Source of the DNA: Escherichia phage vB_EcoP_phi367
Sequence record: PV189406.1
DNA length: 58,966 nt
Reading direction: 5' to 3' (one strand)
In this document: positions 15,001-18,000 of the stretch, in pieces
How positions within the stretch are numbered: the first letter of the stretch is position 1
How the letters are laid out: each line of letters starts with the position of its first letter
Made by a program: the position numbers

Positions 15001-18000
15001 ATCTTGAGCAGGGTATGGGATCTTATATTTATACATTCTGGGGATAAGTGTCATGTATGGTTTGAGCATTATGAAGCCGGATGGCAGCGTATGGATAAGT
15101 CCAGGTTTTACGCCGCAGTGTCTGATCAACAAAGGCACCATACCGGCGACTGAAAAGTCTTTTTTTAAAACATCAATCCCGTCAGGCAAAAGTTGTTTTT
15201 TCTTTATCAGAACAGAGAAGAAGGCCGATGTCATGTACACGCATGAACAGATTGATGGATATCATGCACTAAGGCTTCATGTAATTGTCAGGGGAACGAA
15301 CCCTGGTGTTACGACGGTTTATGCTTTCGCGAATATGGTTACTCCACCTTCTGAGTATGGTATCGCCATGTATAACCCGGACGGTGAGATGATTTATCAT
15401 GGCGAAATGATGCTGCTTGACGCGAAGTTAATACCTGTTGATATCAAATTTGAAAAGGACCTTGGATATCCATGCGCAATCATGCCTGCACTGGTCGGGT
15501 ATTATAACTGGAAAAGAACTCCTTATGATCGACCGATTTATACCACATCCACTGGTGCTACAGGAAATAAAATATATTCCTGTGAGCATTATTCCGGCGG
15601 TGCAACATGGGATATTCGAAAGCCGTATATAGATAAGGTCCTGGTTATTAATACATCAGTATATGATTAGTTGAAGCGAGTCTTTAATATTCATTTAAAA
15701 TGTCTAAAAAGATGTATTATTAAAAAGTTTAGCGTGTTATCTGAATACAGGATATCTTAAATGAAGAGTATAGCAACACTGGTTGTGTGTGCAATCTCCG
15801 GGATTGCCTGTGTAAATTTATCTGCACATGCAGCAGAAGGAAACCATACAATTTCTCTGGGGTATGCGCACTTTCAGTTTCCGGGACTGAAGGATTTTGT
15901 AAAGGATGCGACTGCTCATAACAGGGAGACTTTCAGTCATTTCGTCAACAGAAACTACTTTTCTTCATTGGGCGAATATACAGATGGTCGGGTCAGTGGA
16001 TATGAAGGCAAGGATAAAAATCCACAGGGCATTAATATCAGGTATCGCTACGAGATAACGGATGATTTTGGCGTTATCACCTCTTTTACATGGACGCGTT
16101 CTCTCACTAACTCACAGACATTTATTGATGTGCAGTCAGCCGATCATACCAGGAAGATTAAGAATCCGGCAGCTTCTGCCAGAACGGATATCAGGGCGAA
16201 TTACTGGAGTCTGTTAGCGGGGCCTTCATGGCGGGTTAATCAGTACATGAGTTTATATGCGATGGCAGGGATGGGCGTTGCTAAAGTTAGCGCTGACCTG
16301 AAAATTAAGGACAATATTAACAGTAGTGGCGGATTTTCTGAAAGCAACAGCACGAAAAAAACCTCCCTTGCGTGGGCTGCAGGTGCACAGTTTAACCTGA
16401 ATGAGAGTGTTACACTGGATGTGGCTTACGAAGGTTCCGGCTCTGGCGACTGGCGCACGAGTGGCGTTACTGCTGGCATTGGCCTGAAATTCTGACCTGT
16501 ATCCGGTAACCGTTTACTACCCGCTGTGATGGCGGGTTTTTTATTGCCCGTACAGGGCAAAAACCGTAAATTATGCGTGGGTGCCTTTCGGCTGATGGCT
16601 GGAGGGAGAACCTGAAGGCCTGATGTGGAAAGGCCCCGAGTCAACTTAACGTTAACCCGAGGCCCTAACACTTCGTACCTTAAGCAAGTAGAAGGTTAGC
16701 GCCTCTCTGTAAAAGGAGTCAAGCGCTATGCCGCAAAAAACGATCATAGTCAGCATTTTATGCATAACTATTTTGATGATTGTCTGGATGATACACAACT
16801 CTCACTGTGAGTTCAGACTTAACATCATGTGGTCACAATTTGCGGCGTTCTTACAGTGTAAGCAGTAGGAAAACCGCGACGGGGACGAAAGTCCCCGTCA
16901 ACTGGTTGCTGAGGTTCAGTCGATATGGCACCCGTTTCAGGTGAGAGAATGAACGATAAAATTCTCCGGTATATGCAGCGTGTGGTGAGAAATTCCCGCA
17001 ACCCTGAATTTATGAATGAAGTTAAAGACGCCTGCCTTAAAAAGCAGGCGTTTTGTTTTGAGGCACCTGATGGCTTTCTGGTGCTGCGTTCTGTGCTCAG
17101 TGCTGATGGTATCCCTTATGTTCTGGTGTTGCTGGGCGTGTGTACGGGGAGTAACAGCGTTGAGCGTTATCTGCCGGAGGTGAAGACATTAACCCGTCTG
17201 GCTGGCGGACGCTGGGCTGAATTTCATACGGCAAGGCGGGGATTTATCCGGCTGGGAAAACGTCTGGGCTTTGAGCGAATGCCGGATGATGAGGATGGCT
17301 TCATGGTGTTCAGGATAGCGGTCTGACTGCTACAGTTTTCATCATTGTGTTTAAACCAACATTGTAATTCACATTCTGACCCTGCTCCGGCAGGGTTTTT
17401 TGTTATCCGAGGGGGCCATTATGGGTGGAAGTAAAGGCGGTGGTGATACCAAAGTAAAACCAACAGCAGCGCAAATAGCACAGGAAGAAGTGGCCTGGAA
17501 AGGGTGGCAGGATTATCAAAAAATCCTCCGCCCGGCTGAAGATAACTTCATGGAAAAGGTCGATGACCTGAACAGTGAGCAGCAGTACGACAATATCGCT
17601 GGCACCACAAATCTGGGGTATCAGAAACAGTTTGGCGAAGCACGCGAAGGGAGCTGGCGGGTAATCTTGCTCAGTCCGGCGTTGACCCATCCAGTGGTCG
17701 CTTTAACGCGGTAATGAATGCGAACCAGAGTGATCAGGTAACCGGGCAGATTGACACAACCACACGGGGGCAGGTATCGCAGGCAGATAAGTATGTTGCC
17801 GGGCTACAGGATGTTGCAGCTCTCGGTTCTGGTCAGAAGGCGGATGCGTTACAGAGTTTTAACTCGCTGGCAGACAGCAGTCTGGCAAAAGCTAAATCGG
17901 ATGCACAGGCGGCGTTTACGAAACAGCAGGGGCGAGCCTCTCTTGTTGGCGCTGGTCTGGGTGCGGCAGGTACATATGCGATGCATAAGGCTGGCGGTAG

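Follow-up and report, generated by a model that had tools for sequence, protein, structure and literature searches.

A probable hok/sok-type toxin-antitoxin module without a mok frame next to lom in Escherichia phage vB_EcoP_phi367

The 58,966-nt stretch of Escherichia phage vB_EcoP_phi367 (sequence record PV189406.1), referred to below as the window, carries downstream of lom a short module which we consider, with a probability of about 0.8, to be a hok/sok-type type I toxin-antitoxin moron of a 933W-like phage. The lom-adjacent hok locus is genuine, and is already annotated and catalogued. Mildly new are only two of its features, both derived from computation alone, namely an architecture that retains the RNA elements of hok without mok, and the exchange of the toxin coding sequence as a cassette.

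The toxin gene had been noticed in a sequence-only reading of the window, and the 46-codon open reading frame (ORF) described there is indeed present on the plus strand, encodes exactly the 46 amino acids stated, and is preceded by the AAGGAG ribosome-binding site (16713-16718, 9 nt 5' of the ATG). The peptide matches Pfam HOK_GEF (PF01848) over residues 9-44 with 24.4 bits, the gathering cut-off being 22 (E 2.2e-5), as well as PHROG 251 ('MokW-like host killing') with an E-value of 7e-20. It follows the Hok/Gef layout of one N-terminal hydrophobic helix, a Cys-Glu motif, and a second, C-terminal Cys/Tyr position, and its residues C12, T14, C27-E28, AAF, and C44 align with family positions in an alignment with HokA, HokB, and HokC; a list of the conserved Hok positions is given in a preprint (bioRxiv 10.1101/2025.08.07.668861). 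Of these three K-12 paralogs, the ones compared, HokA is the closest, with 41% identity (tblastn E 3e-9) against 28% for HokB and 24% for HokC, which bears out the earlier description of a HokA-like Hok/Gef type I toxin moron after lom, with the qualification that the HokA equivalog NF007290, the best NCBIfam match, scores 38 bits against a cut-off of 89. The window peptide shares with HokA the MPQK start and the AAFL.CK C-terminal end, and differs from it in length (46 vs 50 amino acids) and in its prophage context. Its C27 and C44 are hard-coded and match the disulfide positions of HokA and HokB. HokA also encodes both disulfide cysteines directly (bioRxiv 10.1101/2025.08.07.668861), and for this reason TadA editing is not needed in either HokA or the window peptide. 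Judged by these alignments and scores, the peptide is a member of the Hok/Gef family that is HokA-like but not HokA.

Related loci, 80 viral and four genomic, were collected by peptide-family alignment. They encode 22 peptide variants, all except one of 46 residues, and comprise 38 distinct alleles of the coding sequence, 37 of which are full length (46 codons). The median ratio of nonsynonymous to synonymous substitution (dN/dS, Nei-Gojobori) among the 38 alleles is 0.22, with all 656 informative pairs below 1; as read from these alleles, the Hok peptide is under purifying selection.

The coding sequence is embedded in a hok-type RNA whose elements are listed in Table 1. The putative sense promoter, of which TTGC.. 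and TA.ATT are kept across loci, places +1 at G16579, and the block conserved in 39 homologs begins with GGGTGCC and ends with GGCACCC. The corresponding RNA, 16579-16933, has a minimum free energy (MFE) of -143 kcal/mol (z = -7.9 vs shuffles). In an E-value search, the Rfam family RF01794 aligns with 16579-16739 on the plus strand (36 bits, E 4e-6). Despite its name, 'sok', this family models the hok leader and not the antisense RNA, because its consensus runs from GGGUGCUUGA (tac) to the hok AUG on the sense strand. In the predicted MFE structure of the full-length RNA the 5' and 3' ends are closed on each other by two helices, an outer one between 16579-16585 and 16927-16933 (96.6% paired across the 39 homologs, to which the pairing figures of the closed form refer) and an inner one between 16588-16595 and 16916-16923 (91.2% paired, with compensatory pairs at 6 of 8 positions). 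The leader region targeted by Sok is engaged with the 3' untranslated region (UTR) in a helix of 13 pairs, five of which show compensatory changes, e.g., exchanges between GC and AU in 11 and 14 sequences. The two helices in which hok's Shine-Dalgarno sequence (SD) is sequestered by an anti-SD are 99.5% and 88.8% paired in the homologs, and the AUG region, 16728-16737, pairs with codons 38-41 (16839-16848), the start-codon helix being 100% paired. Taken over the whole closed form, 87.6% of the alignment cells are paired, against 37-45% when the partners are slid by 1-3 columns, and 30 pairs carry changes on both sides. A 5' metastable hairpin in the nascent RNA also forms in the prediction, with a z-score of only -1.5.

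A second fold is predicted for the RNA from which the 3' end has been removed. The perfect hairpin GACGGGGAC-GAAA-GTCCCCGTC reported in the sequence-only reading exists, 2 nt to the right of the position given for it there (16878-16899 and not about 16876-16897), and it is 99.7% paired, with compensatory changes in five of its nine pairs. It had been taken for a possible 3' fold-back element of the hok mRNA. This assignment does not hold, as the hairpin takes the position that is occupied, in the 3'-processed hok mRNA of plasmid R1, by the terminal stem-loop, and the true fold-back element (fbi), GGCACCC with UCAGUCGA, lies 17-35 nt further on, at 16916-16933, outside the interval 16560-16905 to which the locus had been assigned. 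Weakening of the stem-loop after the stop codon destabilizes the processed hok mRNA of R1 (PMC9841398); because of these R1 mutants and the matching position, the hairpin at 16878-16899 can be considered the counterpart of the protective stem-loop, the processing itself being predicted by analogy. When RNA 16579-16899 is folded, tac pairs with the ucb-like box in a helix that is 97% paired across homologs and has three compensatory pairs, and RNAalifold recovers the tac stem unaided. The leader hairpin of this form, when compared with the R1 hok model (PMC9841398), pairs GAGGC, at the place of the R1 mok SD, with a dcb-like GCCUC; it is 89% paired, with four compensatory pairs, and the Sok-like RNA described below has a 5' end complementary to its loop, 16679-16687. 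Overall, the refolded form is 91.5% paired, with seven compensatory pairs. Columns 10-11 of the alignment co-vary with columns 359/358 and with columns 51/50 alike (UA to CG, CG to GC), as a two-state switch predicts. The closed and the refolded mRNA forms are thus, as far as comparative sequence analysis can tell, both kept by compensatory changes.

Table 1. Features of the lom-adjacent module and of its upstream neighbour in the window.
Feature	Position	Strand	Details
Putative hok promoter	16544-16572	+	-35 TTGCCC 16544-16549, 17-nt spacer, -10 TAAATT 16567-16572
Full-length hok-type mRNA, 355 nt	16579-16933	+	From tac at the 5' end to fbi at the putative 3' end
tac-like 5' element	16579-16595	+	GGGUGCCUUUCGGCUGA; pairs with fbi (full-length form) or with the ucb-like box (truncated form)
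ucb-like box	16625-16637	+	GUGGAAAGGCCCC; pairs with tac once the 3' end is removed; RNAalifold consensus, fold of 16579-16899
Leader hairpin of the truncated form, 17 bp	16659-16705	+	16659-16678 with 16688-16705; centroid of the 16579-16899 fold
Anti-SD/SD hairpin	16698-16727	+	AGCGC-GCGCU, CUCU-GGAG; covers the hok SD (16713-16718); full-length MFE
hok coding sequence, 46 aa	16728-16868	+	MPQKTIIVSILCITILMIVWMIHNSHCEFRLNIMWSQFAAFLQCKQ; ORF list; Pfam, NCBIfam, and PHROG matches; dN/dS 0.22
GC-rich stem-loop, 9 bp, GAAA loop	16878-16899	+	Sequence and scan; 99.7% paired, 5/9 pairs compensatory
3'-UTR segment	16902-16915	+	Pairs with the Sok-target leader region 16677-16691 in the full-length MFE
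fbi-like fold-back element	16916-16933	+	UCAGUCGAUAUGGCACCC; pairs with tac, 8 bp + 7 bp; full-length MFE
Predicted Sok-like RNA, about 63 nt	16623-16685	-	5' single-stranded tail, 16-bp hairpin, UUU
Putative Sok-like promoter	16693-16722	-	-35 TTGACT 16722-16717, 18-nt spacer, -10 TAACCT 16698-16693
lom	15761-16495	+	Pfam Ail_Lom
lom terminator	16519-16537, then T run		Scan

The homology among loci located in differing contexts starts approximately at the sense -35 box and ends directly after GGCACCC. Among 83 loci at least 16 groups of upstream flanks and at least 11 groups of downstream flanks can be distinguished, and this diversity, together with the limits of homology, indicates that the mobile unit is the block 16544-16933 and not the ORF alone. 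The location of the locus in the sequence-only reading was therefore right and its extent was not, since the interval 16560-16905 falls short of the conserved module (approximately 16544-16933). Similar DNA occurs in 197 phage records, and 1750 of 5426 complete genomes of E. coli also contain it; all 17 protein database matches to the peptide come from E. coli. The alleles differ in their distribution: MSQKSLITV... is the version of the lom-adjacent locus found in 933W and Sp5, while the MSQKSLTAI... and MPQKTIIV... alleles occur after ogr at the ends of P2-like prophages, in some cases as two copies in tandem. One such locus (L004), in a P2-like prophage adjacent to serS, has two tandem 46-aa hok modules after ogr, at 1212-1352 and 1684-1824. 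When the window is compared with the 933W type (locus L025), the leader is 99.3% and the 3' UTR 96.9% identical, and the coding sequence only 68.1%; the latter is 86-96% identical to the MPQKTIIV-type alleles, including those of a P2-like prophage. The crossover points map to RNA boxes that do not vary, one at the start codon and the other at TTTGCGGCGTTC. From this mosaic pattern, the hok coding sequence of the window looks like an exchanged cassette in which the frame was kept. Two further loci, from a Planococcaceae metagenome-assembled genome (L009) and from Vagococcus sp. (L010), carry a near-identical enterobacterial hok module in Gram-positive records, and probably represent contamination by, or mis-binning of, Escherichia or Salmonella DNA.

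A number of observations nevertheless weigh against a working hok/sok-type system, and several of them concern mok and the access of ribosomes to the hok start. The overlapping mok frame, named in the sequence-only reading as a usual component of hok loci, is absent from the window, and no such frame is conserved in 65 homologs, when all frames and all plausible starts are considered. At 16675-16677, where the starts of mokB and mokC align, the window holds no start codon, the mok-equivalent frame is closed by TAG at 16697-16699, and no start is available in the other frame. Of the conserved upstream starts, the ATG at 16623 gives a frame of 8 codons and the GTG at 16625 one of 24, and both frames end before hok. 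In the 57 of 65 homologs that have the GATGTG motif (the remaining eight sequences are without it) the upstream frames reach hok in 14 cases, stop just before the SD in 15, and end earlier in 28, a scatter of frame ends such as would be expected if selection were absent. An overlapping frame of 61 codons is present in some alleles, e.g., that of locus L005. The synthesis of Hok in R1 requires translation of mok up to the hok SD (PMC9841398). The hok SD itself is approximately 80% paired in every predicted state in most alleles. In the window its unpaired probability changes from 0.19 in the full-length form to 0.42 in the truncated form, and back to 0.19 with the Sok target blocked; a simple scheme in which truncation frees the SD and Sok re-closes it was nonetheless set aside as doubtful, since most other alleles barely change. 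Furthermore, the RF01794 match lies under the gathering score of 59, and at the gathering threshold no sok/hok Rfam family is found across the window; there is no canonical terminator 3' of the fbi element; and a scan for consensus promoters gave no site on either strand, so that we infer both promoters from position and homology. Finally, according to work cited in bioRxiv 10.1101/2025.08.07.668861, chromosomal hok loci of E. coli reportedly do not confer post-segregational killing.

These observations could be accommodated if the locus were a translationally silent relic, in which the folds and the ORF persist and the toxin is never made for want of mok. Besides the missing frame and the R1 requirement for its translation, the prevailing pairing of both the hok SD and the AUG in all predicted states would suit such a relic, as would the reported inactivity, at least in the work cited by the preprint, of chromosomal hok loci, and the decay of the other hok locus of this phage (see below). 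It is, however, hard to reconcile with the low dN/dS and the 37 of 38 alleles that are full length, with compensatory changes that keep both RNA forms, with the presence of the module in at least 11 flanking contexts and in so many phage records and E. coli genomes, or with a coding sequence that was swapped as a cassette with its frame kept. We therefore regard the silent relic as unlikely, and prefer the hok/sok-type toxin-antitoxin module.

The antisense component of this module is predicted from the minus strand. When hokB and hokC are aligned with the locus, the annotated ends of K-12 sokB and sokC both transfer to 16685 and 16623; the likely start of the Sok-like RNA is G16685, and the position of the putative promoter, where AGGTTAGCGCC hardly varies within the family, is consistent with the 5' end mapped from sokB and sokC. 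The RNA has a folding energy of -32.5 kcal/mol (z = -5.7), and its main hairpin of about 15-18 bp occurs in 32 of 32 distinct alleles, with an upper stem in three different sequences. This hairpin has a greater stability in the antisense than in the sense orientation (-24.0 vs -13.1 kcal/mol) in 31 of 31 alleles, since on the sense strand A-C mismatches replace about three of the G-U pairs in each hairpin; as the alleles are related, the count is to be read as a strand-specific signal and not as a probability. A check of the minus strand for a Sok-like promoter and terminator, proposed in the sequence-only reading, thus yielded both at the sequence level, in the form of TTGACT/TAACCT and of a hairpin followed by UUU. 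The presence of a Sok-like antisense gene, at the place of K-12 sokB and sokC, is supported by these comparisons.

One could instead imagine a functional toxin without any antisense RNA, controlled by the mRNA folds and phage late transcription alone. Such a view draws on the promoter scan, which gave no minus-strand site, on the -10 box TAACCT, which agrees with the consensus in no more than 3 of 6 positions, and on the fact that the putative promoter bases also serve sense helices, so that their conservation is ambiguous. It leaves the far greater stability of the antisense hairpin in every allele, the coincidence of its ends with those of annotated sokB and sokC, and a -35 box, TTGACT, that matches at 5 of 6 positions with the correct spacing, all to be explained otherwise, and appears to us very improbable. 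The idea that the ORF is a chance frame in a spacer, to which its mere 46 codons, the non-coding look of the gap, and the blank left in some older records might lead, is refuted by the Pfam, NCBIfam, and PHROG family matches, the conserved frame with its low dN/dS, and the conserved hok-type RNA architecture that surrounds it.

If the hok/sok-type module operates like that of R1, the full-length hok mRNA would be an inert store, closed 5' to 3'. Slow trimming of its 3' end as far as the GC-rich stem-loop would activate it, with tac moving to the ucb-like box. As long as the short-lived Sok-like RNA is supplied, it would pair with the trimmed mRNA and lead to its destruction; once Sok synthesis stops, Hok would be made and the inner membrane depolarised. 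The module might serve prophage retention or phage exclusion, or might assist lysis after induction, the last by analogy with hokW-sokW of Sp5. A bolder proposal, which we put forward tentatively and rather doubt than believe, is that the prophage Hok subfamily of 46 amino acids works without mok, with the RNA switch and the Sok-like RNA as the sole controls on the translation of hok; Sok pairing might, e.g., free the anti-SD to re-close the hok SD, besides triggering cleavage of the duplex. In 933W-like phages the trigger would then be read-through of the late operon, with Q-modified polymerase passing through lom on the plus strand and running head-on into Sok transcription, thereby silencing Sok at induction, and the conserved RNA boxes that flank the coding sequence would double as crossover points for the exchange of toxin cassettes between phage types.

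The resemblance to the R1 hok/mok/sok system is extensive. Common to both are a small hydrophobic toxin with Cys-Glu, the Rfam hok-leader match, the GC stem-loop after the stop codon, tac/fbi closure, the tac/ucb switch after 3' trimming, and an antisense-target hairpin of the GAGG/dcb type (model in PMC9841398), as well as an antisense gene, predicted in the window, at the same place and with a 5' tail and a hairpin. The window locus differs in having neither a mok start nor a conserved overlapping frame, in a toxin of 46 and not 52 amino acids, in being a phage moron and not a plasmid locus, and in the lack of an obvious terminator after fbi. The subfamily thus offers a natural hok mRNA with every classical RNA element but no mok, which bears on the question of whether mok is needed.

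Identity of the locus with hokW-sokW, known from Sp5 and 933W, was considered and rejected, as both the locus and the peptide are different and the hokW leader is absent from the window. The hokW-sokW system of Sp5, studied by Takada et al. in 2021, helps lysis after induction (PMC8621323). It belongs to the same family, is likewise found in 933W-like Shiga toxin (Stx) phages, and may plausibly share a role in lysis or release; it encodes, in contrast, a 51-aa HokW and has annotated mokW and sokW, compared with 46 amino acids and no mok in the lom-adjacent locus. In 933W, hokW lies at 58.4-58.8 kb (its leader at 58.7 kb), on the other strand and about 13 kb from the lom-adjacent locus. The hokW leader is the rarer of the two, with 63 vs 197 phage records. 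In the window a decayed hokW remnant was found by HokC tblastn at approximately 28591-28724 on the minus strand, its homology to hokW extending from codon 2 as far as the conserved CTCTGC. Single-base indels are present, an internal deletion of 76 nt has taken away the C-terminal half, and unrelated sequence occupies the places where tac, sokW, and the mokW start would be, with no Rfam match there. As hokW is decayed, no hok-type locus other than the lom-adjacent one is intact in the window or in the related phage TL-2011c. In the 933W-like Stx phages there are two different hok loci, and the Sp5 mutant in which Takada et al. deleted hokW-sokW (PMC8621323) retained the lom-adjacent one, which could mask part of the phenotype.

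The ORF had been called unannotated. This is not the case: the RefSeq record of TL-2011c has it as F366_gp64 (YP_007001484), 'MokW-like host killing', a label that is a family name and does not imply identity with the hokW-sokW locus, and E. coli genomes processed by the Prokaryotic Genome Annotation Pipeline (PGAP) label its homologs 'Hok/Gef family protein'; the spot is left blank only in the original 933W and VT2-Sakai records. No literature on the lom-adjacent locus was found, and the peptide surfaced only in the supplements of a preprint surveying Hok (Escalera-Maurer et al., bioRxiv 10.1101/2025.08.07.668861). According to this survey Hok occurs in 9.3% of Escherichia phages and hok is enriched in prophages, and 42 of 45 tested Hok peptides were toxic, the three non-toxic ones being named in the text (bioRxiv 10.1101/2025.08.07.668861). 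The homologs selected for testing in its Table S2 include 72_1589, 72_1621, and 82_1289 (bioRxiv 10.1101/2025.08.07.668861). Of these, 72_1589 is the 933W allele of the lom-adjacent locus and 72_1621 the P2-prophage allele, both from Hok cluster 72, and 82_1289 is 65% identical to the window peptide by residue count; cluster 82 consists of MPQKTIIV-type peptides like that of the window. None of the three is among the peptides named as non-toxic, and the preprint text thereby implies toxicity of the 933W allele and of the 65%-identical relative, from which the window allele, itself outside the tested set, may be judged by analogy. The survey differs from the present analysis in dealing with coding sequences only, and leaves mok, Sok, and the mRNA folds unanalysed (bioRxiv 10.1101/2025.08.07.668861). 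Since hok is common in Escherichia prophages, the locus is annotated, and relatives of the peptide are reported to be toxic when over-expressed, the locus carries little weight as a discovery.

Over the segment 16496-16924 the window has the same sequence (100% identity) as Escherichia phage TL-2011c, a member of the genus Oslovirus (NC_019442) and a 933W-like podovirus of the Shiga-toxin type, whose source is an outbreak strain of enterohaemorrhagic E. coli (EHEC) O103:H25. The genes of this region, all on the plus strand, encode a tail fibre, a membrane-associated protein, lom, the small ORF, and several hypothetical proteins. The gap in which the small ORF lies is bounded by the lom terminator, as had been stated; its size, given as 365 bp, is 429 nt when measured from the lom stop at 16495 to the next annotated start at 16925. 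This start belongs to the downstream gene 16925-17326 on the plus strand (gp65, an L0129 homolog), and its ATG is located within the module end (AUGGCACCC, the fbi element), which is also found in contexts where gp65 does not follow. Translation from ATG 16949 gives a 125-aa protein that covers residues 1-124 of the 124 of PHROG 610; because of this coverage and of the overlap with fbi, 16949 is a likelier start of gp65 than 16925. Within the same ORF there is a terminator-like hairpin, GCCTGC..GCAGGC followed by TTTTGTTTT, at 17033-17058 (both strands), which could be the end of read-through hok transcripts or a chance match. Elsewhere in the window, Rfam matches above the gathering score were obtained for STnc100, three tRNAs, the lambda cIII thermoregulator, and sRNA-Xcc1, with coordinates 52160-52365 (+), 51807-52053 (+), 40680-40738 (-), and 33785-33874 (-).

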